DNA of 64,000 nt from Takakia lepidozioides (lineage: Eukaryota; Plantae; Bryophyta), in contig CM060731.1 in the NCBI GenBank assembly GCA_030704615.1, positions 49,042,001 to 49,106,000 on the forward strand, in the 5' to 3' direction. Position 1 is the first letter of the stretch; each line of letters begins with the position of its first letter. The position numbers and the translations under genes were made by a program. The notes under the pieces were generated by a model. It had not been told where the DNA came from. It ran no database searches and saw only the letters and a list, made by a program, of their open reading frames with translations. Positions 99 to 48,545 of this stretch are shown here, one piece after another.

Positions 99-2346
99 TC
101 AGTCTGATCCAGAGTTAGTACAATGTATCACCGCGTCCACTGTATCCAAGTCCAAGAATTTCAGAACTCCGGATCTACGATGGCTACTCCTGTGATCGGG
201 CAATAAGAAGTCAGGGGATAGAGCCTCGGCCATTTCAAGTGCCATTGCTTCGGCATAGACAGGAAGCACAAAAGTGGAAAGGGGACTGTCGAAAACAGTC
301 TCGGCACAAATGGGGGTTTCTCCTGAAGATCCATCGCTGCCGTTCCTGCAAGTCAAAGCATGATAAAAGTTATTATTGCAATTTTGATGTATGCAAAATT
401 GAACAAGCACCCAAACTGGAATGACATTTCCATAGCCGACTTACTCACATGAGAAGTCTTTGTCGATCTGCTTATCCTCGGTATCCTCATCATTTCTGAT
501 TTGAATTTGTTCGGTCTGTGTGCCAGACGTAGAGCCAGACACAAGAGGGAGGAGGACACTCTTGAATAGTTCGGTGTCGCCCTCCATGCCAAAAAGGCTT
601 CTCCCACCAACCTTGCAAGCACGGTAAGTCACACATGCCAAGACAGAAAGCCTCAAGAAGGTTGTAGAGGATGCAAAATCGGATGCAAACTGGAAGACCT
701 TCAGAATGGAAACAGTATTGAACCAACAAACCTGTGGATAGTGTGAGGTCGACCACCCTTGCAGAATGGTGGCTGCATGACTCCAAGAGCGTCTGCATGA
801 ACGCTGGGGTTCTCTCCCTTGCACCTCTCCACGGAAACCTGTCTGGTCTTTTGGCTGTCTGACTGGAGTGCATGAAATTGTACAGCATGTCATCCACATG
901 CGGTTCGTATGGGGGGTTGACAAAACACCTCTGGTCGGAAATTTCAAAGCTGCGAACGGATGAAGGTGTTTTGGAAGTGCGAATCCGCCTCAGGCAGATT
1001 GTCTCAAACATCCTTGTCTGGAAAAGATGCAAGGTAGGAGTGAGACATAGAAATTCGAAAGAAATTCTGGCGCAGGAAAGAATAGAACATGGACTGCAAA
1101 TGTAAACTACAATGGAATGTTTTTGTGATGATCGGTGTCGATCATCACATATGGTGGTAGAGCAAGCCAGCAGAAACAACTGAAAAGACATTGGGAAACA
1201 GTTCAGAGTAGGGCGACGCCATACCAGCTGTCCAGGGCAATCACCTTTCAGAAGGTACAGGATGTTCACACAATTCCATGTCCTCAGAATTTCGAACCCA
1301 GACGAGTTCAGGTATGATGCCAGACCCCTACGACTATCCTTATCACATGACTGGAAGAGCAAAAGCGTTCCTGCATCTGAAAGGAAATTATTGCAGAAGC
1401 CGAATACCCAACTCCAGTAGTTCTCATTGAATCTGTTCCAGGATGGAGTCTTTCCCTTTGGAGGAACGTCGGGGACAGGCAGGCCGTCTGGGATGTCAAG
1501 GATGACCATGTCAGCGGCAAAGGGTTTTTGAACACCGCATACGAATGAGGGACCATTGCTCACCTGCAGCATACCGGTATAATTTCAAGTCAAACAGAAA
1601 TGAGGGTCCCAACAGAAACCATCATCTACATTGGCATACACAAAATTCAAAAGTCCCATGTGAAGATGAAGATTCTTACCAGATTAAGAAATGAAATCAT
1701 GTTATCCCAAGTTGGTGATGGCACCCCCGAGTAACTCTTTCTCCGAGTCTCCATCATCACCAGCCATCCCTCATTCACAATCTTGATCTGCCCTGCCAAG
1801 TCCGCACGGGAAGGGTGTGGCTTGGCATCGAATGGACATTGAACAGTGAGGGTGTACCTCCCAGCGGTCTCATCTTTCTCCTTGTCCTCACCTTTCTCCT
1901 TTTCCACCTCTTTCTCCTTCGCCTTCTCCTTCCCCTTAGCCTTCTCCTTCTCTTTGTCCTTAGGCTTCTCAGGTGACTTGGCTACTACCTCCGGAGCCTT
2001 TGGATCTTTCCCCTTTCGACCCGCCTTCCTGCCTTTCTGTGGAGTTGCCTGCGCGTCTGGCTCCTTGGCGGCCAATGAAGCAATGTTCCTCTAGTACTCT
2101 TCGTCGTTCAAAGGTGCCAGCATCTCCGCATGGTTGTTCATATATTTCATTTGCTGCTCTTGAAATGTCGTGTGCTCTGGAGGGTAGTCGAGGTACCTAC
2201 CACAATCCTTGAAGTGGGCAGGACTCCAGTCCCTCAAGATACCAGCTGTGTACTTGGTGGGATCGTTGGCAGGGTCGGACCACATGTCCAGATAATCTGG
2301 GATTCCACTCAGGTGTTTTCCTTCCATCAACACATATTTAGTGTAC
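99..2346 (-). pseudogene. Element A ParB-MTase-like gene, 3' exons (beta-class amino-methyltransferase-like domain and C-terminal exon)
   Basis: Motifs DMVILDIPDG (~1490), PWRGARERTPAFMQTLLESCS, VVDLTLSTG, ACKVGGRSLFGMEGD; GT-AG introns; homologous exon by exon to 39358-41541; in-frame stop at 2091. Confidence 0.75.
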
Positions 2347-2633
2347 CTGCGGAGGCTCAAAATAACACCATCCCCCAAAACAAGATATCAGAAAGGGGGC
2401 TGCTATTTCATGAGCGGCATGAGCATGAGCGGAAAAAAAAAAAGCATGAGTGGGCCATTGTGTGTCCACGGAAATAGGGTCATGTGGACTCGTCATAGCA
2501 ATGAAATGCAACATTTTATTGCAAATTTGGTGGCAAGCCATGTCTATACAAATGTGTCCTAACTGCCATAGCAGGAATGGGAACCTCTCTGCTACACCCT
2601 CCGAGGAACTTGCCCTCCTTCTTCCTCATCCCC

Positions 2634-5600
2634 CTAATCCCCCCCATCCTCCGAGCTCTGTGATGCAGCTGCAAGTTCCGAGTTGTGGAGGGCAGTATCT
2701 AGCTCGAAGGCGAACACATGCATGTCGGACAACGTCCCTGCCCACATTGAAGCACCTGAGGAACAAAGCGGGCGGTTAATAGCTTGCGGCATGCAAATTG
2801 CAATCGGGCCAGGGGACAAACTGAGCACGTGAAGGCTTACCCGTGCCGCATGTGAGGTCAAGAATCCGCCCTTGGACATCCGAGCACGTCTCCATGAGGG
2901 TTTGGATGAAAGCAGGGCTCCGGGTCCGACTGTACCGCCACGGTTTGCCTGTCTTTGTGTCCTTCGGCATATTGGAGTGGGGCACATAGTTGTAGAGGAC
3001 ATCGTAGGTAACAGGGTCCACAGCGGCATCAACAAGACGACCGTCGTTGCGGAATTTGAACGTAAACCCTCTCTTCACAAAGCAATATGCCTCAAACACC
3101 AATGTCTGCACATCCAACAAAAGAGGGATCAACTCCGGGATCTAGTTTAGATACACCACAGTATGAGGTGAATGCAATAGATTGATAACTTACACTTTGG
3201 CCCTCTGTTTGCAACCCCTGTGTATTTGATGCAGAACCATTTTCTGAGGAGGACCGGGGTGACACTTTTCGGTGTCCATCTTGCCACAACATTCTCTGTG
3301 GTCTTCCCTCTTGAGGCAAGGACAACCACACATCCACCGTCATCCAGGAGCATCCCCGCCAGCCCAAACCCGGCTTTCCAGTAGTCCTCAGTAAACCTGT
3401 TCCAGGTGGGCACACCATCCAGGCCCTCTAGCAGCTCCCCATCTGGAATGTCGAGGAGAATCATATCGCAAGCTCTCTCCACCCCCCCACCCCCCGAGTG
3501 CTCTTGCAATCCGTGCTCACAGCCGTGAAGAATTCCATCATGGCTTCCAAACCAGGGGTGTCTTTAGGCTCTGTACCGGCAGCCCTCTTCTTGGCTTTCC
3601 CCTTCTGCTCCTCCAGAGACTTGTTGTGTGCCACCTTCTTCGCCCTGGCAGCCAGAGCGTCAAGGAAGCTCTCATTGACGCATTGGATGATGGTTGGGGG
3701 TTCTAGATTTGGCCTGTGCATAAACGTCACCGCCGAATACCGCTGTGTAGGCTCGCCCTCAAATGCCAACTTCTCGGCAAAGCCAGTCCCACTCCGAACT
3801 GACTTGGGAACCCGGACGACCGGTGACTTGGTAGCAGCAGCAGCAGTCGCAGGACCTTGAACAAAGTCGTCGTCGGAGTCACTCCCTTGGGTCCCCTCCT
3901 GTGCCTCCTCCGGTGCCCCGATGGTTTTCTGTTTTTTGGGGGTTACTGTACTCCCCTGTTTCCGTGTCCTTTTCTTTTGGCCTTTATTCTTCTCATTCAA
4001 TTTCTCCTGAATTCCTGCCTGAGCAAGCTTTGCCGCTTTCCTAGAGTTCGCAAGCGCTTTTGCCTCCTTTGGACCCAACGGAGGCAGCGGAGCCCGGTTT
4101 CGTCGGCCCTCAGCATCTAGCTTCAATTGAAACTCGGATGGGTCGAGCGAGCCGGGCGGAAGGTCCACATACCAAGGGCAATCACGCAAATGTTCCAGAT
4201 GCCACTCCTTCGCAATAACGTCAGTGTACATGGAGTCAGCCCCAGGGTTCCTCCATGCCAGGAAGAATCGTGGCTCGAAGGATAGATGACCTTTCTCCAA
4301 AAAGGAGAACTTGCAGTACCTGCATTCATGAAAAACACAGAATGAGGTCCCTGAACTGGAAATTCGACACCATTTTCCCAGGTTGGGGCGGAACTGACTC
4401 GGCCTGGAACCGGAAAAATGGCGCCGAATTTCGGTTTTCGGTGCCAGCCACCCTAGGGACTTGAACTTGAAATTTGGCGCCATTTTCCAAGTTCCGGGCC
4501 CAAAATGGCTAAGTCCCAGAACTGACTAGGCCTGGAACCGGAAAAATGGCGCCGAATTTCAGTTTTTGGTGCCAGCCACCCTAGGGTCTTAGCCATTATG
4601 GGAGCATGAACTGGAAATTCGGCGCCATTTTCCCAGGTCCGGGCCCAAAATGGCTAAGTCCCATAACTGACTGGGCCTGGAATTGAAAAAATGGCGCCGA
4701 ATTTCGGCTTTCGGTGCCAGCCACCCTAGGGACTTAGCCATTTTGGGAGCCCTGAATTGGAAATTCGGCACCATTTTCCCAGGTCCGGCCCGGAAATGGC
4801 TAAGTCCCAGAACTGACTGGGCCTTCAACTGGAAAAATGGCGCCGAATTTCGGCTTTCGGTGCCAGCCACCCTAGGGTCTTAGCCATTTTGGGAGCATGA
4901 ACTAGAAATTCGGCGCCATTTCCCAGGTCTGGGCCGGAAATGGCTAAGTCCCAGAACTGACTGGGCCTGGAACTGGAAAAATGGCGCCAAATTTCGGCTT
5001 TCGGTGCCAGCCACCCTAGGGACTTAGCCATTTTGGGAGCCCTGGACTGGAAATTCGGCGCCATTTTCCCAGGTCCGGCCCGGCCGGAAATGGCTAAGTC
5101 CCAGAACTGACTGGGCCTGCAACTGGAAAAATGGCGCCGAATTTCGGTTTTCGGTGCCAGCCACCCTAGGGACTTGGCCATTTTGGTCCTGGAATTTGGA
5201 AAATGGCCCCAAATTTCAAGTTCAGGGCTCCCAAAATGGCTAAGTCCTAGAACTGACTAGGCCTGGAACCGGAAAAATGGCGCCGAATTTCGGTTTTCGG
5301 TGCCAGCCACCCTAGGGACTTGAACTTGAAATTCGGCGCCATTTTCCAAGTTCCGGGCCAAAAATGGCTAAGTCCCAGAATTGACTGGGCCTGCAACTGG
5401 AAAAATGGCGCCGAATTTCGGTTTTCGGTGCCAACCACCCTAGGGACTTGGCCATTTTGGGAGCCCTTAACTGTAAATTCGGCGCCATTTTTCCAAGGAC
5501 TTCTTCACAAGTAATTTTCATGCGCCAGATGAGGCCTCTAACATCCTGAAATGTAAGGACTTGAAAGGAAGGCATCGCATATGTACCTGTACAGAAGGCG

Positions 5601-8175
5601 CATTGCTGCTTTGTCAGCGTTCGGCTGGTCGATGAACTCGTGGCTACGGCGGGCATGGGGTATCTCCCGAAAGAATAGGTCGGTTTTGTACAGCAGAAAG
5701 TACCTCGTCACATAGTCGCGTAGGCTCTCTGCTACACCAGAAATCTCCAGCTTGAATTGATGTGCTTGTGTGTCCAGCTGCTCTTGCGCATTCGTCGTCA
5801 CCTGTGGAAATTCTCCATCAGATCGCTTTCCTCAAAAAATACAATAAATCCACCCCCTACAAGAGTAGAAGCGCCAAATGAAGCGTGGGGAAGTACCTGA
5901 AACCACCATGTCATGCGGTTCATCCATAGGTCAAATGTGGGGTCAGACAGTTTGTCGGGTTTGGGGAAGCTCCACATGTCCCTTGTACTTTGGGAACCAT
6001 TCCAGATTTGGAGCCACCGGGTCTGTCCAACCACCCAACATATTAGTAAGCACCAAACACCACAAAAACAAGTTGTTGCCACAACAATTTGGTTAAGAAT
6101 GTATCACCTTTTCTGTTGCATCCACACAGGATGTGGCTAGACGATGGAGCTTCTCCAATGTCATCGTGGGCTTCAGAGCGCAGGAGTAGTGCTTCCCCAC
6201 CTCCACCAGAAAGTCGGCACCAAGGGCGGGATCAGCTATGGCCACGTACTTTACCATCCGCGACTTGTGCTTTATGCGGGCCTTCACCTCCGTAGCTTTG
6301 AGATGCGATTCCAGTGCCGGGAGGGTTAGTTTCTTCTCCTCTGACTCCATGTAGAACCTCCGTGCATGTGCCGAATCATGCTGAATTTTCGTCTGTCAAG
6401 AATGCGCACATAAGATTAGAAATCCCGGTCAACACTTTTTTTTCTTTTGGGGGACTAGAGACAGATTAGCTAAACAAAATAGTAAGAGCTTTACCTGAAA
6501 TATGTAGTCCACCATGGCGTCCACGCTCAGCCTATACCAGGTTTTGTCTGCCTTTGCCTCCGACTTGCGCAGGAGGTCGACACTCAGCGAATTGGCAAAC
6601 TCTTGCACCCCCTACTTCCCGACGTCCTTCACTCGGAAGAGCATATGGGACAAGTTAGTGGCAATGAAGGCATTCTCAGTCACCGTGCAATGCCACATTC
6701 CCATCAAACAATACTGAAATGGGAATTTGCAACATATATGAGGATTCGCAATGAAATGACTTACAAATTGAAAGTCCAAAAGCAAGAGGCGTTGTAATTT
6801 ACGAGTTGATGTCCGCCATTGCAGCTTTGAGAAGACTGCGATCTTTGGGCCCCGCAACCTTCAGCACAACACACTCCACGGCGAAATGCCAATCCCGGTC
6901 GTTGGGGTGGGCTTCGGCTATGTACTCCATCCATGCCAGGAGGCGATGATTGTCGTCCCACACGTAAAACATCTTTCCGGACAAGTGCTGGAAAAGAGGA
7001 TCAGTAGCAATCGATCTCTCAAACTCCTCATTTTGCCTTTGCCAATGGGGACCCCATTTGTCCACCTCATCGGAAGTGTGGGCACGGGAAGCTCCGTGGT
7101 CGTTCTCAATGGAAACGTAAAACGCGGCAGACCGCATTCGATATCCCTCCCGGAAAGAGAATTTCAGCTTGTCGATATCGCCTGGGAGGGCAGGTCTCAC
7201 CACCTGCAATGACACCAAGCGGCAAAGGGGAATTTAAAGCTTGGCCGGGTACACCATGCCCCCCAGCACCCTACCAATGTTGCTGTGGGTTGCCTCCAAC
7301 ATCTTGGCAGCGGCCAACTTCATATCCGCTTCCGACATGACGTCTGCTGCAGAGGGGTTCTCCGGCAGGCCACCAGGACCGCCAAATCCAGCCTGTATGC
7401 TGTGGGTTTGGGGCCTGGGGATGTCCGGGAGGATGTCATCCTGGTCAGAAAGCTCCCTGTCGTCCTCCTCAACATGGTCAACCACCGGCGGAAGCACCTC
7501 CACCACTCTCCCCGTCTCTACTGCCCTCTCTGCGGCTTCATCTCGAACTCCCACAATCCGGGCTCTTTGTGGTGTTCTTTCCCCTCCTCCAGTCTTCACC
7601 ATATGGGTGACTGCGTGGGCCGCTCCCACCCGCGATGGTGTCACCGGTAAGGATGCAGCCGGTGCGCTACTGCCTTTTTCTGGTGTCTTGGAGGGATCCA
7701 GCTTCTCTGTGCGACCCTCGCTTACGAGAGGTGTCATGTCGTCACCCCTGGCCTCATCAGTGGCCTTTTCTCTTGCCTCTTGGCTAGCCTTGTGTCTCGC
7801 CTGTTCTTTTGCCCTCTCTTTTGCCCTCTCACGGGCCTTCTGTTTCTTACTAGGGGTAGCAGCAGGGGAGGCCTCCAGATCAACCACCTTTGATTGAGGC
7901 GATCGGACACCCTCGGACGACCTGGTCCCTCCCCCCTCCGCAGCCTGTGAATGTTTTCTCACCGGGGATTGCATCTGCTTGGCTTTCTTCTTCTTCTTTG
8001 CGTGGGCGGGCCCTACTGCATGTGCATGAGCTTCCTCCAATAACGGATCTGGTGTCCTCATCCGACGGGCTTCACCTACCATGCCGCTTGCACCAACCTC
8101 CGGAATACCAACTAAAGAAGCAATATTATGTTTGCCTTCCCGCCCCAAGTTGGCTGATCCAAACATGCGAAGCAC
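2634..8175 (-). pseudogene. Element B multi-exon ParB/Srx-like + beta-class methyltransferase-like gene
   Basis: Low-complexity N-terminus (7234-8175), ParB-like exon FYVWDDNHRLLAW (6799-7218), helical middle exons (5538-6700), WHLEHLRDCPWYVD exon, CDMILLDIPDG (~3450), RSPAFIQTLMETCS..ILDLTCGTG (~2840-2920), GASMWAGTLSDMHVFAFELD; collinear with copy C; stops and frameshifts present. Confidence 0.8.
4350..5500. repeat. Intronic tandem repeat, ~128-150-bp unit, each with two AAATTCGGCGCCATTTT-type sites in opposite orientation
   Basis: AAAATGGCGCCGAATTT (or a one-base variant) recurs at ~4415, 4543, 4687, 4833, 4977, 5127, 5273, 5401. Confidence 0.95.
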
Positions 8176-8508
8176 TACCTTTGACGACTGCTGCCCACTA
8201 GCTGCTTTTGGAGTGACTGCTCAAGCAGTTGGAGCTGTCGATGATACCACCAGTGTGTCGCGCTCGTCTTCACTCTGTCATCCCCAACAATCGTCAGAAC
8301 CACCATCGCAACCTAAACCACCATCGCAACAATCGTGGACCAACAATGAAAACAAACCCAATGAATGCCTAACAATCACATGCCGAAGCAGCCTAACAAT
8401 CACACGCATTGCAAACTATCAATGGTTCACTCAACCAATAACTTGCAGAAAAAAACATGGAAATGTAAGGACGATTTCACAAAAGGGGAAAACAGGCTTT
8501 TCAAGGCA

Positions 8509-8667
8509 CTTGATATGCCTAGACAATCTTCTCAGCCCAGCATGGATTTCCTTCATTCTGAGATGCAACCTGTCATTTACTGCGAAGGTGTGCATCCTGT
8601 TGCAAATCTCAATGCAGCAACAACCTGGCTCCTTTCTAACCCCTCTAGCCTTCATCATTCTCCTCAC
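8509..8667 (-). pseudogene. Captured PPR E/E+ (PG-box) fragment inside element B
   Basis: Translates VRRMMKARGVRKEPGCCCIEICNRMHTFAVNDRLHLRMKEIHAGLRRL, matching the PLS-PPR E+/PG-box consensus (MK.RG..K.PG.SWIE....H.F...D..HP). Confidence 0.8.
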
Positions 8668-9199
8668 CAACTCGATGCAATCATGAACGTCCTCTTCCAC
8701 TTCCACTTCCAAGGATGCCAGGCTGAAGATGCCAAAACAAAAAAAACAAAGCGGAGAAGACCGCACATGTTACAGAAATGGAAAGAGGAAGGGGCTTGCC
8801 TGAGAGTGCTCGGCTTCAGTTGGCGCGGGCTGCGAGCAAGACAAGGGGATCTCCTACTAGAGCTTCAGTTTGGCCATGCGAGACGCTGGACGCCGCCCGT
8901 AGTACAAAGGCTTCAGTTTGCGGTGCGGTCTGCATGTGGGGTTTCTCTCAGGAGAGCCACGCCCTTCTCCACGCGGCATAAGTCCATGCAAAAGAAAATA
9001 TCGCACGGAAAATGCGTGCGTAGTGGCATCGAGTGGAACTTCATCCACCTGCCACATCAGGGTTTGGGGTATCCGACGGCGGTAGCACGGAATCAGTGCG
9101 GAACGTCCGATTGAAAACTGACGGCGGACATTAAATGCGCAACTGCACTGTTAAATGGAGGAGTATGTCGCCCACCCTCCCACATAGAAATTATTAGCC

Positions 9200-11250
9200 C
9201 ACTGGATGGAAAAACGGCGCCGAATTTCCATCCGGCGGATCAAGTAGGATGCAACGTGGCCATCTCTCCGGCCAAGACGTTGTGGACGGATGGAAATTCG
9301 GCACCGAATTTCCATCCGATGACGCCGGCAAGAGGTCGTGTCGGGGGGAGAGGCCGACACCTGGCTGACAGAAAACATCCCCGGATGGAAATTCGGCGCC
9401 GAATTTCCATCCGAGGCCGCCGTCACTAGGCATGTCGGGGGGAGAGGCCGGCACCTGGCCGACAGAGTACATCCATCGGTTGGAAATTCGGCGCCAAATT
9501 TCCATCCGGGGCCCCCCGCAGGCGGACACGTCGCCGACAAAGATCAGCCACCGGATGGAAATTCGGCGCCGAATTTCCATGCGGTGCCGCCCGGATGAAG
9601 TCGGTTGAAGGGGAGAAGCCGGCACCGGGCGGACAGAGACCATCCCCCGAATGGAAATTCGGCGCCGATTTCCATCCGAGGCCCCCCGCAGGAAGTCGTC
9701 TCGGGGGGTGAGGCCGACACCTGGCTGACGGAAAACATCCCCGGATGGAAATTCGGCGCCGAATTTCCATCCGGAGCCAGTCGGATGAAGTCGGCTCGGG
9801 GGAAGAGGCTGGCAGCAGGCCGACAGAGAACATCCACCGGATGGAAATTCGGCGCCAAATTTCCATCCGACGTTGGCCGGATGTTTGCGTTTGGGGCCCC
9901 TTCAGGAACAATTTTCTATCCTTGCATGCAGTTTTACGCGTTTTTGGGTCTAATCAGACACAAAACCTCTAGTTTTGTGGCTGAACTCCACTTTTAGCCA
10001 CGTTTTTCAAGGAATTCTTGTCGGCTTCAGATAAATTCCTTGCCTCTTTCCCGTCCCGCTTACTTCCTACATGGAAATTCGTTGCCGAATTTTCATCCGG
10101 CCGCGTTCCCGATTACATGCCAAATGGAAATTCGGCGCCGGTTTTCCATCCTGCAGGGCACCAGTTTACTTGCAAGGTTGGAATTCGGCGCCGGTTTTGC
10201 ATCGGGCTGCGATATCGCTTACCCGCTGGATGGAAATTCGGCGCCGAATTTCCATCTTGCAAGTAAACTGGTGCCCTGCAGGATGGAAAGCCGGCGCCGA
10301 ATTTCCATGCTGGGGATGTTCTCTGTCGGCCAGGTGTCGGCCTCTCTCCCCGAGACGACTTCCTAAGGGCGGCCTCGGATGGAAATTCGGCGCCGAATTT
10401 CCATCCGAGGATGTTTCATGTCGGCCAGATGCCGGCCTCTCCGCTTGAGCCGACTTCATCCGACCGGCCCCGGATGGAAATTCGGCGCTGTTTTTCCATC
10501 TGGGGAGGTTTTATGTCGGCCAGTTGTTGGCCTCACGAGTTCCTTTGGGGGGCCCCGGATGGAAATTCGGCGCTGAATTTCCATCCGGGGGATGTTCTCT
10601 GACGGCCAAATGCCGGCCTCTCCCCCCGAGCCGACTGCATCCGACCGGCCCCGGATGGAAAATCGGCGGAGTTTTTCCATCAGAATTTCCATCCGCCAGG
10701 TAAGTCGGAGCGCAGGCGGATGGAAATTCAGCGCCGAATTTGCATCCTGCAGGTAAGTCGGAGCGCGGGCGGATGGAAATCTGGCGCCGAATTTCCATCC
10801 TGCAGGTAATTCGGAGCGCGGATGGATGGAAATTTGGCGCCGAATTTCCATCCTGCAGGTAAGTCGGAGCGCGCCCGGATGGAAATCCGGCGCCGAATTT
10901 CCATCCGGGGGATTTCTCTGTCGAGCAGGTGTCGGCCTCCGATGGAAATTCGGCGCCGTTTTTCCATCCGGGGGATGTTCTTTGTTGAGCAATTGTCGGC
11001 CTCTCCCCCCGAAATGACTTCATCCGGCCGGCCTCCGATGGAAATTCGGCGCCGTTTTTCCATCCGGGGGATGTTCTCTGTCGGCCAAGTGTCGGCCTCT
11101 CCCCCCGAAACGACTTCATCCAACGGGCCTCGGATGGAAATTCGGCGCCGTTTTTCCATCCGGGTGATGTTCTCTGTCGGCCAGGTGACCGACTCACCCT
11201 GGAGACGAAATCGTCCGACCGGCCTCGGATGCAAATTCGGCGCCGCTGTT
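9200..11250. repeat. Element B intergenic array of a 30-bp palindrome GGATGGAAATTCGGCGCCGAATTTCCATCC (~25 copies)
   Basis: Perfect or near-perfect copies, e.g. 9383, 9743, 10377, about every 50-110 bp between the divergent genes. Confidence 0.95.
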
Positions 11251-11663
11251 GTATGTTTACTTTTGGCGGCGAGGTTATGGCACTCAATCTTGTAATCAGA
11301 CCCACTGGAATGCCACCTCTGTCAGTTCCCTCTGTCCATGGGGAAGATGCTTGCACGCTCGCGCCCCCACGCTTCTTGTCAGACACTGTAATGATTGGTT
11401 TGCGTAGCGCATCTGCACAGGTCATATACCTTCTGACTGCATACCGTTGGCAGTTATTGCGCAAAGGCCAGGGGCCGCATTCCGCAGACAAAGTTCATTA
11501 ACTCTCTGACAGTGGAATTTCGGGAGAGTGGGCTCCCCGGATTCGTGAATAGGCTTCGTCGCTTGCAAAAATTGGCCCTGCATTCCTTCCCCTCGCTGCA
11601 TCCCCCCTTCTCCCAGGGCGCTTGTCCGAACGCCGTCCTGGCAGTCTTGTGTGCACAACTCCC

Positions 11664-14600
11664 ATGGCAGAAAACCCGAGCGCTATAGTGTACTGCCCTC
11701 CTCACGAGCATAGAGCTACATTTCCGTGCAGAGGGGAGATCTGTCGGGTGATGGAGAAATATCTCTGCGTTCGATACCACCTGAAACCGGGGTCGGTATT
11801 TCTGGAGGAAGAAAGGAAGGATTCAAACGGAGTTGTAGTCGAAAGTATTGTTGTGCTCCACGATGATTTCGGCGACGGCAGGGAATGGCGAGTTCCACCA
11901 TCGGACAACGTCATATACAGGGCTGTTGGGGACTTCATTTGCCCCCAAAATGCGCCTTCTATCCTGCCGCCTTCCACGAAACAATCAGCGAATCAGAGAG
12001 TGGGTACCTCAAAGAGAGAAGTCTGCAACGAAGTAAATCCAGAGCCGAACCCATCAATGAAGACGAGCAAGAACCGGGTTGTTCACAACCTGTCCGACTC
12101 TGACGAGATCATGGAAGTTCCGAGATCATCCTAGAGATCAGGCAAGTCCTCAATGGACATCAGCGGACGAGGGAGTCATATTCCCAGCACGAACATAGCA
12201 GTTCGATCCATTCTTGAAATTCTGCGAGGGCTTCACATGGAGGGACACCGCTCGGAGCTGGCTGGTCTGGACTACAGCAAGTTCTCCATTAAATCCGTTA
12301 CATGCCTTCCCGCAGACGTCGACAGTAATATGTTCTTTGAGTTCCCTCCTCGAACGGACTATTCGAGGGCGTCCGGAATGTTGACAGATATGGATAGAAA
12401 ACATCACGGTCATCCTTGGTGCATCACCAAAACCACCAGCATGAAGATGCTTGATGGTGTGCGGGTGTGCTACGTTGTTTGTGCGGGCGCGTTGCGGTGT
12501 TTCTCCCCAACTTGCTTCCACTTTAAATCCAGAGGTCACAGGAACGAGACGGATTGGACATGCACAGCTCATCAACCATTTCGAGCTCAAGAAAAGGTTC
12601 CAAACTCCACATTTAAGTGTGCGCATTGCAAAGAACCACCACATTGCATGTCTGTTTGTAATGCCAAGCAGTTCTATGTGTTGCACCGTTTCCCTGACCT
12701 CACACGAGCTTGCATACACGTTGGTTCCCATTGTCACAAATTGGCGAGGGGGAACTCGTGGGAGGCTGCCCACGAGGCAGAGCAGCTCGTTCAGGAGGAG
12801 GTTAGGTTGAGACCTGGTGCAAAACCCAAACAGATACAGCTGCAGGCCACCCATAAGATGGCATTGGCCAGAATTATGTCGGAAGACGGCTCCGACAGAG
12901 TTCCTCTCGATGAGAAGGAAATGGAGGCATTGCTGGAGTCGGTGTCCCACGTCTGTTCACCAAATGTCGGAAAGCACATTGTCTCCTGCAAACAGAAAAT
13001 TGGGCGTGGCTCGGATATGCACTCCATTCTGGAGGTGAAGCAACGATGTGGATATGACTACATTCATGGAAGTAGGTTTCTTGGACAAGGGACTGAGGCA
13101 GATCGTTGTTTCGTATTCAAAATGTCCACGTGTGGGCCTGGCAGCGGCGTCGAACTGGTCGACCGGATGACGAGTGGGGACTTGTCAAACAGTTGGGTCA
13201 TGTTCGACCATATCAAGCGAATTACAAATCACCAGTGGGTGACAATGGCTGCACATGTCTACGACACCCACTGCAGGATGCTAATGACAATTGCTATTTG
13301 TGAGATGAAAGGAGAGGACACACAATCGGAGATGGTTCTTTGGCAGGGAATAAACGAACAGATGGCCAGGGCGGGATTGCCCCCTCCCAATTTCCGTGGT
13401 TTCATGGCGGACAACGCACAAGCAAATTGGGCTGCCATCCGAAGGGTGTACGGGGAAGACCCCAATGTTCCGATGGAAGGCAAGGAGAGATCTTGTGGGT
13501 TCCATTTTCTGCAGAGCTTGTCGCAGTACACAACCCGGCTCGTGGCGCCAGATTTCAAAGAGGAGCACCGTTCCATGTGTCTTGCGTGGAAGCGTGCTCC
13601 CACCTTGGATGATGCAGAGACACAATTTGCATATATACGGGCTTGGTGGACAACGTCAGGTGCTGTAAAGAAATCAGACGAGGGAGCATGGCTAGCATGG
13701 TGGCATTATCGTTTCCTCCAGTGTGGCGACTATATGCGGGAGGTGAGTTGGACGAATTCGCGTCACGTTGAATATTATGTTACTCGTTCTTTGTAATTTG
13801 CTTGTAACCTCAACATGTGCATGTGCAGGAAATGTGTCTGGACTCCGACACCGACATGCCGACAACAAACATGGCCGAATTAGTACATTCTTCCTGGCGT
13901 GCCTCCTCTGCGGCGCATCTGGTGGACATCCTCACTGCCACAACGGAGGACATTGTCAGGTCAATTATGCAGCAATGCAGGTACAACGAGTTCTTGAAAG
14001 GGAAACAGTGGGGCTTGGGGCCGGACAGGCAGGAAATGCTGATGCGGACTGCCTCCAGATCGAAGAATCCTCGCAAGTGGGCGGCAGCCTTGCGAGAGGG
14101 CCTTCGGGACACGCCATTGCTTCGAAGAGGCCAACACTTGGAAGGAGATGTTCACGCCCGTCCAGTGAGACGAAGACTTGACGAGGCACCTGGCGGAGAA
14201 GAGGATTCATGGTGAGCTGACAAGAATATTTGCACGCTCCCTCGTGGTCCCGTGATGTTGCCCGAGGAGGTCTCCTCGAGCACTGTAAGTCCTGCACGTT
14301 CAAGATCGCCATCTCCTTTGAGCACAGGGCACGTGCCCGCGGAACATAACGAGCCATCTGTGCAGTACAACATACCCATTGTGGAGACAAGAGTGTCGGA
14401 GTTACAGTGGAGAATAGCAAGGACATTGCCGGCATTTTGAGGGAAGTGCTGCGCCATCCGGGTGATACGAGAGCACACTGTGGTGAGATGATTCGGAGGA
14501 ACCCACACGGTGCTGTACCTGCACCTTGCTTCAGCGGCAAATTTTTGACTCCCACATTCTCTCACGCCACAACGCAGACGTTTTGGTTCTATAGGCACGA

Positions 14601-15212
14601 CATAATGACCTGTGTATTTGGCAAGCCCAAGTACGGGATTCAAGGAATGCCGGAGCCTCCGGACGTCTGGCCTGTTGCACCGGGTTGCAACCTCTTTCAG
14701 AATGAGGCGGATGCTCTTTCTGCAGCAGGATTTCGAATGGTGCAACGCACAGACGTCCCGGCCCACTCGTTTCCAGTTCCTCAGACCCAGCCATTGCAGG
14801 CTGCTCCGTCCAGTAGAGACGGATTGGACAATTCTGCACATCCCACAATGCGATTCGGAATAGTGAAGAGACAACAATTGTCAATGCTCTTGGGATGGCT
14901 TGCACTATTCAGAGCTCCGTGGACGTACCCCCACCCGGCTTTGGGCGTGTTTATCGGATGGCAACGGCCAGCTCAGCTGTATGCGACGACGTATACACAA
15001 TTACGATTGGAGTGGAGCCGACTTGCAATTGTACGGACTTCTCGTTGATGGAAGCAAAGAAGGGGTCAAAGTATTATCCGTGCAAGCATCTGTATTACAT
15101 TTACATGAAGAGGTTGAGGATGAACTTGACTATTGATGACTTTATTCATGCACCAGCGTTGAGCGTGAACGAGCTGCATAAACTACTCCACCGGGATTCC
15201 AGAAATCATTGA
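11664..15212 (+). pseudogene. Element B MULE-type transposase (WRKY/GCM-like DBD, DDE core, C-terminal SWIM finger)
   Basis: HHGHPWC..CAGALRC..CAHC..CIHVGSHCH; WVMFDH, FMADN, CGFH, TTNMAE; CNCTDF..PCKHLYY; intron 13744-13828; premature stops at 12132 and 14213 and later frameshifts. Confidence 0.88.
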
Positions 15213-15484
15213 TGGGGAAAAGGGAATCCACCATATGGATATTTGCAATTGCATTTTTATGCATTAGACTTTGTTTTGCAGTGTAATGAATTGCACCCCA
15301 AAACTCCTGGAATGAGACAGACAATATTAAAATGATGTCTTTTAAACATTAGGGATTGTTGGATATCCGTTCACGTCCAGTGGCAATTCAATGTCGAAAC
15401 AGAATCAATTCAAAGATGGCGGCAGGAAAAATTTGCAAATCTTCCAGAAAACTGAGTTCCAACAGTTGCAGTTGAGAGGGCCAT

Positions 15485-15830
15485 TTCTGGAAAAATGGCT
15501 CCGAATTTCACTTTTTTGGGCCGAAAACTGGCTAAGTCCCAACATTGTCTGGAGATGATGTCTGGAAAAATGGCGCCGAATTTCCAGTTACATGGCCTAG
15601 AACTGCCCAACATTTGTACAATGCCCGGAACCATGTATCGAAATTCGGCGCCACATTTCCAAATTTTGGGCTTACACTTCAATGAAGTTGGGACCTATAA
15701 CCGCGAAATTCGGCACCATTTTTCGCCGGAGTCACCTATTTCCGCGCAATACGTCGCCGATTTTTCTGCTTGCGGAACCTATTACCACGAAATTCGGCAC
15801 CATTTTTGCAAATGTCGCTCGGAATTTACA
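15485..15830. repeat. Degenerate subterminal copies of the element B palindrome
   Basis: GGAAAAATGGCGCCGAATTTCC, GAAATTCGGCGCC, GAAATTCGGCACC variants. Confidence 0.8.
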
Positions 15831-16060
15831 TGAGCGGAAATCAAAATATCATGAGCACGGCTCTCAAAACTACAATTTCTACTTCAAACAATGAATATTA
15901 TATGGGTTTTTTTTTTTCTGACACATCCCATTAAAATAATGTTTTTTATTGTTTTTTATTTGCGGAATTTGTACTTCTGCTCATGAAAACCGATTGTCTT
16001 ACTACTCCGCTCATGCCGCTCATGCTCATGAGATAGCTAACCTCTATCAGAAAGCAGAAG

Positions 16061-19000
16061 AAAGTGATGATCGGTGGCGATCATCACTTTCACATGAGAG
16101 AGAATGCAACATGGGTTGGAAAATCCTTATAATTATGTAGACTGCACAAATGGGAAATGTGATGGTCGGCACCGACCATCACTTCATTCATCAGAAACAG
16201 ACTGCCTATGATAACAGAGGCAGGATTAAGGATGGAAACAAAGACATGATCAGCAGTAACAACTGTTTGACTGGAGAATATCATAGCAGTGGATGTGATG
16301 ATCGGTACTGACCATCACCAAACTGCTGTGTAGCAGAAAAGAAATACAAAGCTTCTCTCAATGAGGCATGACAAAAGTTTAAAGAATGTGCTGGATAGGC
16401 ATATGGCACTGCACCTGTAAACAACACGCATCATCGGCCACTCCCCTCCAACTTGATTGTCGAAATCGTTCGACCTCAATATGTTGCCATCCTTGGAGAA
16501 CTCTCGGAAGAAACAGTACCGCCACGTGAGACCTTTCCACTTTCTAATGTACGCCTCCAAGGTCATATGTGGTGGTGAGACCATCGAAATATTCAAGTTC
16601 TTCAAATTCTGCTCCAGGACAAGAATGGCGCGTTTCTCCAGCTGCAATGGGAACATGTATTAGAATTGCGCATGATAAAGCTATAGGATATTTCATATAC
16701 AACGGGTACTTGAATCCACAAATACCTGACTCCAAAATGTGGCATTGTGAAGCCACTGATCAAAAAACAATATCACTTATTCCCTCGATCTTGGTGCCAG
16801 GCTGGATTGTGCTTTTTGGGAACTGATTCAGATCCTTCACCGTTTGATCCGAGTTCCAATCTCAAGCCATCTCACTTTTGTCTGGTTGTCAACCATAGAG
16901 AGACCCAGCCTGTGCAATTTCTCATGTTGCATCTCTGGATGTACATGCTTATCGTAGTGGGATTTGATTTGGAGAAGGAACTCCTCCCCAAGTCCGGGAT
17001 CCACTATTCTCAATTGCTTCAGGAAGGCCGACATCAGTTTCATTCTCCTTATCTCGTACTCCTTCTTTATGGCTGCTCCAACTCCTTTAGTAGTCCTCAA
17101 CTCTTCTGCTGTAGTGCGGTAGTACTCAGATTTCCCCCTCTCGGCGGTCTCTGCCAGTTCTTGCTACAAGTATCAACGATTGGATTAGTAGACATACAAT
17201 TGAAAATTTGTATGTAATAACATAGGAAGAAGTGGTTTGGGCCATACCGCATACATGTACTCCAAAAATGCATCTCGGGTCAACGAGTACCAGGTCCCTG
17301 CAGATCTTCCTGTTTCGCACTTCTTGATGACATTAGGATGTAGCACTGTGCGGAACTCATCAAGCTTCATCAAACCAATTCTCTGAATGCGGAATAGTGT
17401 GTGGACCAGGCTCGTAGTAACATGTGATTTCTCTGTCGATCTGCAAATAGGGAATACACATTGTATACGTAAGAAATATTTAACGTTTGGACTTGAAATG
17501 CGCACAACATGCAATTTGAAAGGCTATGGGTTTCTGAGGAAGTCCTACTTGTTCACGTCATGCATAGCTGTCAAAAGTCTGGCGATGTCGTTCCCAGGAT
17601 CCAGAACCATTACCTCCACAGCACAATGTTTGTCCTTGTCTTTTGAATGGTGTTTCGCAATGTACCCCATCCAAGCTAGCAAGCGATGGTTCCCGTCCCA
17701 GACATAGAACATGTGGTTGCAGAACTGCTGGGTGTTATGTCCAAGCAGCAACGAGTCCTCGAACTCGTCATTCACATCCTTCCAGCAATCATCCCAGTTG
17801 TCCGTAATCTCTGGGCTCACTTTTGTGCTGTGACCATTAGTATCCTTCAGTGAGACGTAAAAAACTTGTGCACCCATTCTATACCCGTGCACGAAATCTG
17901 TTTCCAACTTGGTAATGTCATGCGAAAGTGGAGGATGAACAACAGGCATGTAGATCATCCGGCAGAGAGGGATTTCAAGACGTCCTCCAGAGACGATCAT
18001 GTCCCTAATAACCTCCTGGGAATTTACCTTTTGATATGATATAAGTTGTTTCACCTTGTCAAGGTAGTGCAACTCAGGCTCGTCAGTGTCTTCGCAGAAC
18101 TCTTTGTGGAGTCGTCCCCTTCTCTAGAGCCCTTTGCATCTGTTTCTGCCTGCTTGGACTTTACATCTGCATACCCAAAACCGCCACAACAGCAACATTC
18201 AACTGGTGTTCAAGAAAACAGACATTTCAACACAGTGACGATCGGTACCGACCATCACTTTGTCTTCTAACAAATGAATGGAAATCCTACTTGGTTTCCC
18301 AATGCACCTTGACTCCGTTCTCGCTAGACTGCGATGATCGGTGCCGACCATAAGGATGATGCAAGCGATGGTCGGTACCGCACATCACCACAAGACAGCA
18401 TTGGGATGCAAACACCCATGAGGTCTAAATGTGATGGTCGGCACCGATCATCACTATAAGTCAGAACCCATTCTATCACTCATTGAACTTGATGTCCTCT
18501 TTTGGATTCTGGGGCATTGCCAATCTGTTCAAAAAGTGATGGTCGATACCGATCATCACAATCGGACTGCCTTGGGAAGCACAACCCATGAGGTCTAAAT
18601 GTGATGGTCGGCACCGATCATCACTATAAGTCAGAATCCCCTCTATTACACATTGAACTTGATGTCCTCTCTTGGATTCTGGTGCATTGCCAATCTGTTC
18701 AAAAAGTGATGATCGGTACCGATCATCACAATCAGATTGCATTAGGAAGCGAATCCCATGACGTCTGAGTGTGATGGTCGGCACCGATCATCACTCTTAG
18801 TCAGAATCCCTTCTTTCACCCACTGAACTTTGTCTCCTTTTATGGATTCTGGCGTATTGCCAAATCGTTCAAACAGTGATGGTCGGTACCGATCATCACA
18901 ATCAGACTGCCTTGGGAAGCACAACCCATGAGGTCTGGATGTGATGCTCGGCACCGATCATCACTTCACAGCAGAATTATGCATTTCATTATATGAGATG

Positions 19001-19570
19001 TAAAGCATAGAAATGGACTTGGAGGCGATGGTCGACACCGACCATCGCTTTTCTGTTTCTCCAATTCCAAATATGAAGTTGAATGGACATTTCTCCACCT
19101 AAAGAATTTCATTGTACAAAGGCTTCCAGTGCGAGATAGGATTTTGGGTTAACATGCAGTCATTGCCGAAAGTGATGATCGGTACCGACCATCACTATTT
19201 AAGTGCCAAAGGATGCACAAACAATGGGAGCTGAATGTGATGGTCGGTAACGATCATCACTTTCCTGAACGACCACGCCATTTCTAAACTGTTCTGAACA
19301 AGAAGGGAATGGACCTCAAAGCGATGATCGGTAACGATCATCGCTTCGACATCATTGCAAGATGCGTCTTTAGTTCCCTGTCACTCTTGAATCACAATGA
19401 AAATCGCATTCTTTGCTTAAATAAAGCAATGGCGAAGGTGATGGTCGGCACCGATCATCACTTTCGCCTTGATACATATTCTTTCCTGCCTGCCTGCCTT
19501 CCTGAATCTGCTGAAATAAGACACCAACTACATTCTTCTGTAAAGCGATGATCGCCACCGATCATCGCTT
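16061..19570. repeat. Element A palindrome sites GTGATG(A/G)TCGG(T/C)ACCGATCATCAC in introns (16061-16320 and 18236-19570)
   Basis: Roughly 20 copies; ~170-bp higher-order tandem unit at 18410-18960. Confidence 0.92.
16416..18072 (-). pseudogene. Element A ParB-MTase-like gene, 5' exons including the ParB/Srx-like domain
   Basis: LEIPLCRM..GYRMGAQVFYVS..FYVWDGNHRLLAW..CAVEVMVL..AMHDVN (17545-18072), homologous to the B and C ParB exons; downstream exons match the B/C middle region. Confidence 0.8.
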
Positions 19571-20878: not shown

Positions 20879-23800
20879 ATGGCTTCCTCCGAAGCAGAGT
20901 TTTATTCTGACGACAAACCAATGCCTTTCTCCAAAGAAGCACTTGACAATGGATTCGCAATTGTGACGGAACATGTCCTGGCTACCCGGTTTGAACTTTT
21001 GAATGGGTCCATCTTCTTGGAGAAAGAGGTGTACGATTTCGACGGGAAGTTGTTGAAATATTCTTTTCAAAATCGTGATGAGACGGCTCATGTGAGCCAG
21101 TGGAGAGTGCGCCCTGGTAGATACAGAGTACTTGGAGAGCCTCGGAGAAAGTCCCTTGGATCATATGTGACGCCCGGGACTGCTGCTTCAGTCGTTGAAG
21201 ACAAAAGGGAGGTGGTGGTGAAAAAAAAAAAAACGTACTCAACTCCAATCGTTGAGCTTTCGGATTCGTCCGATAATGACATTAGTGAAATTCCAACTCC
21301 AGTCCTTTGTACTGTAGTTGTGGAAGCGGATGAAGAAGACATTTGTAGTGTCATTCCAAAACTACGGGCGATGGAAGGAATGGCAGGTTTCAAAAGTGAG
21401 TTGCGGGGAATTGATTGGGAAGCTTTGATGTCATGGTTTTCAAACGGTGGACAACATAGTACATTCTTGCTCCACACAGCGCCAGGCAGGTTGGTACTAG
21501 TTTGTAGAATTTGCAAACGAAAGTGGTTTCCGCTGGAGGAGCAGTCCCAGGCTTAAATGGATTTTCCGCGAGACCCTCCCACTCGCTTTGATTGTGAACC
21601 CCAGACTAAAGAAAGTGTCTGCAATTCAAATTATCACACCTAAGGTGTCCATTGCAAACTGTTCTCCTGAAAACAAGCTTGTCCTCATTTTGAATATTGG
21701 ATGTTTTTGTTCTGCACCATGGGTGCCCGTCGTGTTTCTTGTCCATTCCATGCATCATGCTTGTTATACCTCCAACTCGCGGAGGAGGAGGCAGCTCGAA
21801 TAGGATATCCCCATCAAAAGTCTCTGGCAGGAACTTCGCAGGCACCTACTATGCCTCTCAAAAATTTCGTCCTCTCCTTGGGGGACTGTCCACCTCACCT
21901 CCTGGGAATCTTCTGCCTCTTCTCCCCCACTTTCCTCAGCAGAATCCAAGACAAATCTACGAGCCCGACGGGCTCTAATAGCTGCTGCCTCCTCCCTCAT
22001 CTTCATTTTCTTGAGGCTTGCCTCGTCTAAAATCTGTTGTACACGACTAGGTTCGGAAGACCTCCTAATGGACACCGAAGCAAGCCGGGCAGCATAAATA
22101 GGAAGGATGTAGTCCCTTTCTGGACTAGGCATGTAATCCCCCCTGGCAAAAAAAGGCACGTTCCTCCTGCCCATGAACTCCGGTGTAGACGTCCCTCTTG
22201 CAGTACTTGGCATCCTACAGTAAGAACAAATCCACTTCAAGAATGTCAATACCAGCACAAGCAGAAAGGGTCTTTCAATGAAATAAGAGAGCGAAGGGAG
22301 GTGCCTCACGAAATCAGGAGGCAACTTACAATGCGACCACTCACTCGTAAACCGGGGGCTCCTCGGCCTCAATCCCAACTTGTTCCTCCCCTTGCTCCTT
22401 CTCGGATTTTTCCTCATCCTCCGAGGATGCCTCTTCCTCTTTCGGCAGACGTTCAGCCGTTTGTGTGCATTTCGGCTTCCATAACCATCCTGTCTCGAAG
22501 GTGGATTACATGGAGAGTGTTGAGACAGTATTGAGGTTGATTAAACAGGAGTACAAGAGAAACCCATTCGCAACAACATCCGCAATTGCTCTTGGCGCAA
22601 GCAAGTCCTTCTTGGAAAGCCATATTTTGAGTGAAGGGGATTCTGTGGGGACTAAACTTGACGGTGCAGCACTCGACGTTGTCATGGATCATTTCTCCAC
22701 GTTGAGTTCACCTAACATTCGGCATCAGATCAATGCATTGAGAATGGGCTCTGGGATTAGAGGCTACATAGACAACATTTTGGAATTGAAACGACTGAGC
22801 ATGTACGACTACATCCAGGACAATGTTTTTCCAGGTCAAGGTGCTATCAAAGTTTTTCTTTTCAAAATGTCGACTGCTAGGGAGGGTAGTGGGGTTAGCC
22901 TCGTGAAGCGGATGCAGAAGACTGGGGACCTGCAGAATTGTTTTCTTATGTTTGATCATGTGAAAGGAGTGAAAAATTGGACGACAATGGCTTGTCATGT
23001 GTACGATCCAGTGTACCAACGAGTTATGACAATTGCAGTTTGTGACATGCAATCCGAGGATACCGAATCCCAGAAGCTCATGTGGAATTCCCTTGTACGT
23101 GTTATGGGCTGCCATCTCCAAATTTTGCTGGTTTTATGGTAGATAGTGCTCAGGCAAATTTCAATGCAGTTCGAATTGTCTTCGGATCAGGCGACCCAAA
23201 AGTGCCAATGCTGGGAAGAGAGCGTACATGTCTATTCCATTGGACACAATCTTTGGAGAAACATACAAAATCGGACATCAAACCAGAGATGCAGACACAG
23301 CACCGTAAATTGTGCAAAGAGTACAAAGATGCTAGAACAATGAAGGAGGCGGACACTTTGTTCCAGACAATTCGTGCCTGGTGGTTCTCTTCTGGAGCTG
23401 CATCGCTTGAGAGTATGAGAGCATTGGAAGATTGGCTAGCGTTTTGGCACTTCCGGTACAGACAGTGGGGAGCAGCCATGACAATGGTGCGAGGCTTGTA
23501 TTGCTAGCTTTATTCATACATTTACTTTCCAAATTTTTCTCTCATTGCTTTCTTTATGTTGTTCCCTGTGCACTGTTCTGAAGTGTGGTTCTGCTCTTTG
23601 CAGAACATGTCCATTGAGGAAATGGCGGACATGCCATCTTGCAATTTGGCAGAGACTGTGCACAATGCATGGTTGCAACAGTCTGGGAAACGAGGTCGGG
23701 ATTTGTATGTGGCAACAACAGATGATCTGATACGTGCCTTGCAACAACAAACCAGATACCATGATTTCTTGCGAGGAGGGGCTGGTGGCAAGGGTCCGGA

Positions 23801-33517: not shown

Positions 33518-33539
33518 CTAGATAAATTGGACTCTTAGA

Positions 33540-46735: not shown

Positions 46736-47558
46736 GCAAGCTAGCTTGATTTTGTTTGGTTTGTGGATCATGCCTATCTTTGGGCCACAAACGATTTATG
46801 TGACACCAGTCTACAAATTTCCTGCAGTCACCAAACGACCACCGCTGCCCCAACTTCCAAACTTCCCAACCTGGTTCCGCAAGAATGTTGGGGTCATTGT
46901 ATATGTCCCAACGAAGTTTGCGCCTGGCTCCTTTTGGTTTTTTTTTGGGAGGTCCAGGTTCATTATCGTCATCCCTGGGATGACCTCCTCTGTCTTCCTC
47001 CTCCGCCATTTATGACTCTGGCTTACCCCTACTCGACAGATGTTTGCTAAAAAAAATGCTCTCCCAACCTTCCTAAATCGTAACTAATCCTACTCCTAAA
47101 TGAATCCTCCCCAAGTACGGGGGCTGCTATTTCATGAGCCATGAGCAGAGTCGTAAGTGTGGAAAAAAACATGAGCAGCACTATTTTCCGGAAATGAGTG
47201 TCCGCGGGAATAGGGTTTAGGGTGCCACGGTCATAGGGGGAGAAGGACCTCCCGATGAAGGAGGTTCGGCAATGTTATTTAGAATTATATATTGAAAGGC
47301 AATGTTTCGCGAATGGTAGGGTGGTACTGCTCTGTACAATGGGGGCCCATTTCAGCCTACCAGCCATTTGCAAAATTCACCCACACTCCCAATCCCAAAC
47401 GAAATGAGCAATGACGCATTCTCGGAACGATGGACACAGAATAGAATAAAAAGAGGGCACAATGAGGTTTTTATTGATCCACATGAATTGCATTTGAAGC
47501 ACGTCTACTGTGCTGATTGTGCCATCAAATCTTGAGCCCTGTGCCTACTGAATACAAG

Positions 47559-48263: not shown

Positions 48264-48545
48264 CGACGGAGGTGGAACGTGTTCATCACGCCAGCGGTGG
48301 ATGAACCATACATCTTTCTCATCAACAAGTTATAGTTTGAGATCTGCCACCGAAGTCCATCCCCCGGATGGAAATTCGGCGCCGCATTTACATCGAAGAG
48401 GGATGGACTTCGTCGTGTCCAGTGGCTATCGGCCCACCTGGCAGTGACTGCCCATAGTTTGCATGGCAGGGTAGGAAACTGAAACGGCTACATTCATGCA
48501 GCAGCCAATCTTCATCGGTCCAGGATCCTGTAGGGGGAAATTTAA

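Follow-up and report, generated by a model that had tools for sequence, protein, structure and literature searches.

Organization of the locus

The DNA analysed here, called the window throughout, is a stretch of 64,000 nucleotides of Takakia lepidozioides (Bryophyta; GenBank assembly GCA_030704615.1, contig CM060731.1, positions 49,042,001 to 49,106,000 of the forward strand). It contains four copies of a domain resembling the DNA amino-methyltransferases (MTases) of the beta class. A spliced accessory gene encodes the MTase-like domain at its C-terminal end, behind a likely ParB-type domain, and stands opposite a transposase with a probable SWIM domain in DNA transposons of the Mutator type.

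Two of these transposons could be delimited. Element A measures 13,650 bp (2395..16044) and lies within a 9-bp target duplication (2386-2394 and 16045-16053), its ends matching at 13 of 18 bases. Element C, of 15,458 bp and the same layout (47119..62576), is likewise flanked by a 9-bp duplication (47110-47118 and 62577-62585), and its ends match at 14 of 18 bases. Both target duplications are perfect, and the terminal inverted repeats are short and imperfect. A 9-bp target duplication is the rule among Mutator-like elements. A scan for ends across the whole window returned five candidate pairs, among which A and C were the best and the tied second-best and the sole two with a common end sequence.

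The fusion gene of element A runs on the minus strand. Its 5' exons (5587..8175) hold a ParB/Srx-like core at 6802-7233, with the motif WDDNHRL and a stop codon near 7236. A phase-2 GT-AG intron of 1267 nt (4320..5586), itself containing a palindrome array at 4462-5490, separates them from the last three exons (2634..4319; copy 2), which encode a linker domain, a low-complexity stretch and the MTase-like domain. In element C, also on the minus strand, ParB-like exons at 52929..55369 are joined by a 146-nt intron (52783-52928) to the MTase-like exons of copy 4 (51002..52782). An older element, of subfamily B, has minus-strand ParB-like exons at 16415..18123 and MTase-like exons, copy 1, at 441..2346. 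Element A is inserted in the intron between them (2347-16414; 409 nt without element A), adjoining B palindromes, so that copy 1 stands 14 kb from its ParB exons. The phase-2 intron at an R|Y junction is conserved in all three elements, and the shared phase and junction suggest that the B gene is also spliced over 2347-16414. Copy 3, on the plus strand (39358..41156), consists of MTase-like exons of the B type; neither ParB exons upstream of it nor element ends around it were found in the window.

The transposases are all in pieces and lie on the plus strand. That of element A (11622..15212) has a Cys/His-rich N-terminus, a D..D..CxxH..E core recognised by eye, and a C-terminal SWIM domain (E 7.3e-4, 19.5 bits against a cut-off of 19.6). 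The transposase of element C (58122..61734) shares 69% DNA identity with it over 3 kb, and the rearranged transposase of subfamily B (20879..24980) was located by tblastn with transposase A at 35-48% identity. We take the D..D..CxxH..E core and SWIM, applied to the alignment of the A and C transposases, to be the signature of a Mutator-like transposase; the transposases gave no match to Pfam MULE (Mutator-like element) models or in the PDB.

Structure, splicing and selection of the fusion gene

An earlier note, made from the letters of this DNA, had described four motifs as shared by the four copies. A six-frame scan of the window returned LDIPDG, R[ST]PAF[IM]QT, [VI][LV]DL..[GS]TG and [LV]F[GA].E.D exactly four times each, as that note had it. 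Across 100 shuffles of local codon blocks the last motif came up nine times and the other three 0 times in total. DIPD starts at 1497(-), 3452(-), where it extends to 3441, 40165(+) and 51918(-), and scanning the window with a hidden Markov model of the family revealed these four MTase-like loci and no fifth. Each copy has its motifs spread over three exons with introns at equal places: 1018-1224 in copy 1 (with a B-type palindrome at 1127), 3106-3193 and 2756-2840 in copy 2 (both GT-AG), 40438-40554 and 40847-40962 in copy 3, and 51566-51661 and 51199-51300 in copy 4. The interval 2634..3509, where the earlier note had placed the domain, does contain the motifs, divided among three exons, but it is the 3' end of a far longer gene. 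The copies form two pairs, and two subfamilies (copies 2 and 4; copies 1 and 3), with amino-acid identities within pairs of 61% and 52%.

Every copy in the window carries a lesion as assembled. The last acceptor of copy 1 reads CAT near 635, and a 13.7-kb insertion lies within its intron; copy 2 has frame breaks at 3226 and, by comparison with copy 4, near 3490; copy 3 has a TAG stop at 40309; and copy 4 has a frameshift near 51770. Splicing was observed in contigs that we regard as derived from RNA, which is a guess backed by intron-skipping joints on GT-AG ends, no listed run being recorded as RNA. The 1267-nt phase-2 intron of element A was skipped in one of these contigs. A contig about 96% identical to copy 2 skipped both 3106-3193 and 2756-2840, kept the DIPD codons unchanged and lacked base 3226, and its frame was open from motif IV through motif II. 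Copy 2 and this contig differed at 5 synonymous and 12 non-synonymous codons, which is close to neutral. Between lineages the MTase-like domain is under purifying selection, with ratios of non-synonymous to synonymous substitution (dN/dS) of about 0.11 for copies 2 and 4 and about 0.14 for copies 1 and 3 at saturated synonymous sites; values for the transposase were similar (0.08-0.13).

The lead to ParB came from Atlas, in which a sister copy scored 0.95 to clusters named ParB/Srx, and from a DGNHRL motif compared with GxxR. The order of ParB before MTase was repeated in metagenome locus L011, in fern model P0200 and in part in moss model P0009, and the 5' exons of element A were 27% identical to the N-terminus of P0200. 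The ParB-like domain had no match in Pfam or NCBIfam and none among annotated phages, and its structure model showed no confident fold (predicted local distance difference test, pLDDT, 40.5). The Atlas look-alikes of the ParB-like domain at 17548-18072(-) also include a fungal cluster (0.93) with DUF3723 on 31% of its members; DUF3723 is named in Starship papers, and the resemblance may be a lead that it is related to ParB.

Predicted fold of the MTase-like domain

A beta-class DNA amino-methyltransferase fold is predicted for the MTase-like domain. A profile built from 17 long relatives aligned with CcrM across the whole domain (E 3.7e-9), with motif IV before motif I, and placed the DiPE of the relatives over the DPPY of CcrM; the earlier note had read DIPD in the same register, as a motif IV in which Asp replaces Tyr. 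Relative P0063 matched positions 2-212 of the Pfam model PF01555 just below its cut-off of 26.7 bits, which was reached by 0 of 12 relatives (best 24.5). Atlas also pointed the domain to PF01555, at 0.87, as a lead. A Pfam search of 35 open reading frames (ORFs) of the window returned SWIM and three weak unrelated matches and no PF01555. Nothing significant came from PDB sequence searches with a window ORF and with the four-copy profile, and there was no match in a word-index search with copy 1 or in a search among proteins of 1419-4050 residues.

For structural comparison a relative, P0013, was modelled over residues 292-555, in which motif IV reads DLPE. The model scored a pLDDT of 89.4 and a predicted template modelling score of 0.88. 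Foldseek matched it to CcrM at 1.3e-11, and structural alignment with CcrM gave Z 17.0 and a root-mean-square deviation of 3.8 over 212 aligned residues. The top 11 rows of that alignment were beta-class enzymes throughout, with Z of 15.6-17.0 for CcrM, M.BceJIV, M.MboIIA, M.PvuII and rotifer N4CMT and lower values, about 9-12, for METTL3/14-type proteins. The profile, Pfam and structure matches agree with the fold and motif order that the earlier note had proposed, the model of the relative has the permuted Rossmann fold, and in the profile alignment the D-x-P-[D/E] stretch falls on motif IV.

Motif IV and the cofactor site across the family

A search of 1.84 billion representatives with the four-copy profile brought up 232 relatives at E up to 0.001. 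The best 150 of the 232 were used, and among them 113 aligned rows cover motif IV and 47 cover motif I; the motif IV counts come from a search seeded with DIPD sequences. Named relatives were hypothetical proteins of the moss Ceratodon purpureus and the fern Adiantum nelumboides.

The catalytic motif (D/N/S)PP(Y/F/W) was absent, DIPD standing in 4 of 4 copies and an aromatic residue (F/Y/W/H) at the fourth position in 0 of 113 rows. Asp occupied position 1 and Pro position 3 in 93/113 rows each, and position 4 was Glu or Asp in 91/113, with K, T, S and N also occurring. DIPD proper was found in 7/113 rows. The earlier idea of a conserved non-canonical motif holds in so far as an acid replaces Tyr family-wide; the conserved unit across this large plant family is not DIPD, however, but D-hydrophobic-P-[E/D]. 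Position 4 ranked 28th of 90 columns in conservation. The Trp of a PxWN motif is conserved in 108/113 rows. In 18/113 relatives (P0034, P0038, P0073, P0138 and others) an aromatic residue stands at position 2 of motif IV, as in EYPD, DYPD and DFPT.

The site for S-adenosylmethionine (SAM) was kept in part. Motif I had its Asp in 46/47 rows and its final Gly in 32/32 filled rows. Its first Gly was Ser in 22/47 rows and was retained in 15/47, and the Phe of FxGxG was nearly always lost. A Lys or Arg ahead of the last helix was present in 45/47 rows, and the acid of motif II was found in 4/4 window copies and in 11 relatives chosen by pattern.

In a published model of N4CMT the Tyr of motif IV stacks on the target base (PMC10406627), and a Y107G change is reported to abolish the activity of HP0593 (PMC3036652). 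As this Tyr is replaced by an acid, the ordinary mode of DNA methylation has likely been lost from the protein.

Phage MTases with an acidic motif IV

The plant patterns were also sought outside plants. Among prokaryotic genome relatives 0 of 296 stretches carried them, and of 94 stretches in viral contigs a single one did, a stand-alone phage MTase with DIPD and a canonical SAM motif that was caught by the motif itself. A pattern scan of viral sequences yielded 104 DPPDNIG loci, against an estimated 1000 or so for DPPYNIG, and among 27 viral DIPDNIG loci that on the contig L014 was the one that looked MTase-like by eye. Of 106 viral DPPD/DIPD loci, 78 had sufficient length, and motif I was canonical in 73 of these; all 12 of the DPPD/DIPD phage proteins tested passed the PF01555 cut-off. 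The set comprised 58 sequences non-redundant at 80%, all from uncultivated phages (for example L014:9968-10672, L016:4953-5702 and L019-L122). Three of the DPPD MTases (L026, L038, L079) have an internal HNH domain, possibly a homing intein. No paper joining DPPD, DPPY and methyltransferase was found in the literature covered, which excluded subscription papers and preprint supplements.

Trees were built from 16 plant rows, 20 of the 58 non-redundant DPPD rows and 31 DPPY/SPPY controls, with a smaller test of 40 of the 67 rows; Marchantia, rotifer and algal sequences were outside this sample. In the careful tree the phage DPPD proteins formed one clade, apart from the plant clade and not sister to it, and the plant profile was nearer the DPPY set than the DPPD set (hhalign 108 vs 68). 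Derivation of the plant domain from the phage DPPD clade is not favoured by the profile scores or the tree, although common descent of the two groups was not rejected by the approximately unbiased (AU) test (p 0.29 and 0.37).

Palindrome arrays

Each subfamily carries arrays of a palindrome. In element A the palindrome is GAAATTCGG-NN-CCGAATTTC, with arrays at 9287..11245 between the divergent genes; the B type is GATGATCGG-NN-CCGATCATC, with an array at 18237..19547; and that of element C is GAAATGCGG-NN-CCGCATTTC, with arrays at 55800..57700 and also near 49490-50290. The three share a CGG-NN-CCG core and have flanks of their own. The B motif had 18 matches, all in B regions and 0 in A or C; between A and C the motif changes at two bases, and each of these two forms also matches the arrays of the other. 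Arrays also lie inside the fusion-gene introns, and palindromes cluster near the right ends of A and C as well.

The central CG had become TG, CA or TA in 37/52 C palindromes, with the flanking CGG and CCG largely intact, and in B palindromes it was kept in 0/20, with the flanking CpGs kept in 19-20/20. Decay of the central CG between preserved flanks has the look of selection acting, in methylated DNA, on a site that a protein binds. The observed/expected (o/e) ratio of CpG was 1.13 and 1.36 in arrays vs 0.29-0.55 in flanking repeats. Just upstream of copy 3, at 35213-39148, a different palindrome forms long tandem arrays with a period of about 116.

Other features of the window

Within element A, 7983-9210 has very deep cover by RNA-type contigs with many loose ends near 8510-8670, and is probably a high-copy repeat or a captured expressed fragment. 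Two related ORFs, about 50% identical and inverted relative to each other, lie in the left arm of element C (47562-49243); they have no Pfam match and are possible extra cargo. A further ORF is common to subfamily B (21767-22417) and element C (50538-50902) at about 48% identity. Parts of the transposase 5' region recur in inverted orientation (21429-21830 and 25637-26233), flanking and interrupting the B transposase. Tandem arrays with periods of 367, 136 and 84 occupy 30059-34420, where minus-strand frames look by eye like what we presume to be decayed pentatricopeptide repeats. The lowest CpG o/e of the window, 0.29, was found over 27-34.4 kb.

Possible roles of the fusion protein

With a probability of roughly 0.45, we favour the view that the fusion protein includes a pseudo-methyltransferase that binds the palindromes of its own element with the help of the ParB-like half and so helps the family to resist silencing or to transpose, a form of self-protection like that of VANC. 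The protein would load through its ParB-like half and dock on the CGG-NN-CCG palindromes in the introns and spacers of the element. Its MTase fold, with the SAM site probably still occupied, would then hold or open the DNA without methyl transfer. Bound sites might be shielded from host silencing by 5-methylcytosine (5mC), or assembly of a transposition complex might be aided, as with VANC on VANDAL repeats. The broken copies in the window would rely on intact copies elsewhere. Inactivity, DNA binding and anti-silencing are what we infer from the residues, the palindromes and the arrangement of the genes.

Several observations weigh against this proposal. The search was seeded with DIPD, and members with an intact motif may therefore be under-sampled. 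An acid at position 4 in 91/113 rows beside retained SAM-site residues fits an enzyme equally well, and the phage DPPD motif occurs in intact conserved genes, so that an acidic fourth residue is evidently tolerated and an active enzyme stays in contention. The decayed central CpGs imply that the arrays were methylated at some time, and protection would then be partial at best. The high CpG o/e of the arrays may simply mark young, CG-rich repeats, and the palindromes could be sites for the transposase instead. The identity of the ParB-like domain is a lead from Atlas and a motif, with Pfam empty and a model of low pLDDT, and the fold was predicted from relative P0013 and not from a window copy.

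The fusion protein could instead be an active SAM-dependent enzyme in which D-x-P-[D/E] is a working variant and which writes N4-methylcytosine (4mC), N6-methyladenine (6mA) or another mark on its own palindromes, blocking maintenance of 5mC by the host. We hold this less probable than the pseudo-methyltransferase, of which it is the main rival. The acid and the SAM-site residues just mentioned speak for it, as do the canonical motif I (73/78) and PF01555 scores (12/12) of the phage DPPD/DIPD proteins, the AU test, which leaves common descent with them unrejected, and algal accessory genes predicted, in the report describing them, to write 4mC or 6mA (PMC12477816). Against this, position 4, where K, T, S and N also occur, ranks no higher than 28th of 90 columns; the Phe of motif I is gone, and often its first Gly, losses not shared by the phage DPPD proteins; by profile the plant family is nearer to DPPY, and the plant clade is not sister to DPPD in the careful tree; and any activity of the phage DPPD proteins is itself presumptive. 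A broader form of the proposal is more doubtful still: D-x-P-[D/E] would be a working, undescribed beta-class active site in uncultivated phages and land-plant transposons, and moss and fern Mutator elements would use a ParB-loaded enzyme to label their own palindromes, by a bacterial-type mark or a new SAM-derived one, and block host silencing. It is improbable, and more so than either form of enzyme, that the palindromes are sites for the Cys/His-rich N-terminus of the transposase and that the fusion protein is a conserved helper without sequence specificity, acting in scaffolding, DNA bridging or sequestering of a host partner. The C-type half-site ATGCGG resembles what we take to be a GCM site, and both elements have palindromes clustered toward the right end; MULE transposases are described as having DNA-binding domains of the WRKY-GCM1 type (PMC1702500). 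The aligned N-terminal domains, however, had no GCM match in PDB sequences, which leaves a GCM-like identity of the transposase N-terminus unconfirmed; arrays also lie within the introns of the fusion gene, and the inverted-repeat arrays described in Bostrychia adjoin a ParB gene (bioRxiv 10.1101/2025.02.11.637652). A neutrally decaying relic of a captured MTase, with DIPD as a shared mutation, is hardly credible. Four of four window copies are broken, and copy 2 and the RNA-type contig differ almost neutrally (5 synonymous, 12 non-synonymous), but the between-lineage dN/dS of 0.11-0.14 already contradicts neutral decay, the 232 relatives, moss and fern models included, keep the pattern, and one spliced copy has an open frame. 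Recent decay touches single copies and not the family.

For binding as for activity, the defined ends, the spliced transcript and the subfamily-specific palindromes make direct tests feasible, and the family-wide change from Tyr to an acid makes the test of activity a sharp one. An inert domain would make these elements carriers of a pseudo-methyltransferase, and plants would then have a second way of countering silencing in addition to that of VANC. An active one would be an exception to the (D/N/S)PP(Y/F/W) rule, in common with the phage DPPD clade, and a DNA mark may then have been overlooked in bryophytes or ferns.

Comparison with known systems

Enzymes of PF01555 such as CcrM, M.BceJIV, M.MboIIA, M.PvuII, M1.HpyAVI and M.RsrI share the fold and the IV-before-I order with the MTase-like domain, which differs from them in having D-h-P-[E/D] for (D/N/S)PP(Y/F/W), an eroded FxGxG and a score below the Pfam cut-off (24.5 vs 26.7 bits). 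Rotifer N4CMT and Marchantia MpDN4MT1 are also eukaryotic proteins with a bacterial-type beta-class fold; in the published descriptions they keep SPPY, which is absent here, and are reported to make 4mC (PMC10406627; bioRxiv 10.1101/2021.02.12.428880). No special link to these 4mC enzymes was found, rotifer N4CMT (Z 15.6, 12% identity) not aligning any more closely than bacterial enzymes and Marchantia being compared by motif. In METTL14 and Kar4, too, selection has preserved a permuted amino-methyltransferase fold although the active-site motif is disrupted. As described, they partner an active subunit on mRNA (PMC4738411), whereas no gene for an active partner was seen in the elements studied here, and METTL3/14 entries were weaker structural matches to the P0013 model (Z about 10-11).

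VANC of the Arabidopsis VANDAL elements is, from the account of PMC10398659, an accessory gene on a plant DNA transposon whose family-specific motifs are repeated in non-coding parts. Loss of methylation is shown there, whereas we infer it here, and the likeness is one of layout, with no homology claimed.

The nearest counterparts come from algae, where papers on brown and red species float self-modification by a transposon with ParB and a methylase as an idea; the same layout is now seen in Mutator elements of a land plant. No ParB-methylase transposon of a land plant was found in the literature covered, and subscription papers, Repbase entries or preprint supplements may describe one. According to the accessible text of the Bostrychia report, the Plavaka genes PAG2 and PAG3 include a ParB-like gene beside inverted-repeat tandem arrays, and the element that carries it also has a putative N6-adenine methylase; homologs occur in Chondrus Mutator elements (bioRxiv 10.1101/2025.02.11.637652). 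Those are separate genes, one joining ParB to a 2-oxoglutarate (2OG) oxygenase and the other the methylase to a SET domain, whereas here the ParB-like and MTase-like domains share one gene. The accessory gene of Sola1-1_Ec32 in Ectocarpus is described as encoding one long protein, ParB-like and N4C/N6A methyltransferase, opposite the transposase of a large cut-and-paste element, and this protein is proposed to act on its own element (PMC12477816). Its carrier is a Sola element with a 4-bp duplication, in contrast to the Mutator type (9 bp, SWIM) found here in a land plant, and the likeness is by domain layout. Motif IV lacks the aromatic residue here; the comparison with Ectocarpus relies on a description that, in its available part, does not state the motif. 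As in the Ectocarpus protein, the ParB-like and MTase-like domains stand in one gene opposite a transposase. Transposon genes of this ParB-methylase kind were known already from algae, and those described here are a land-plant Mutator variant with an acid in place of the catalytic Tyr.

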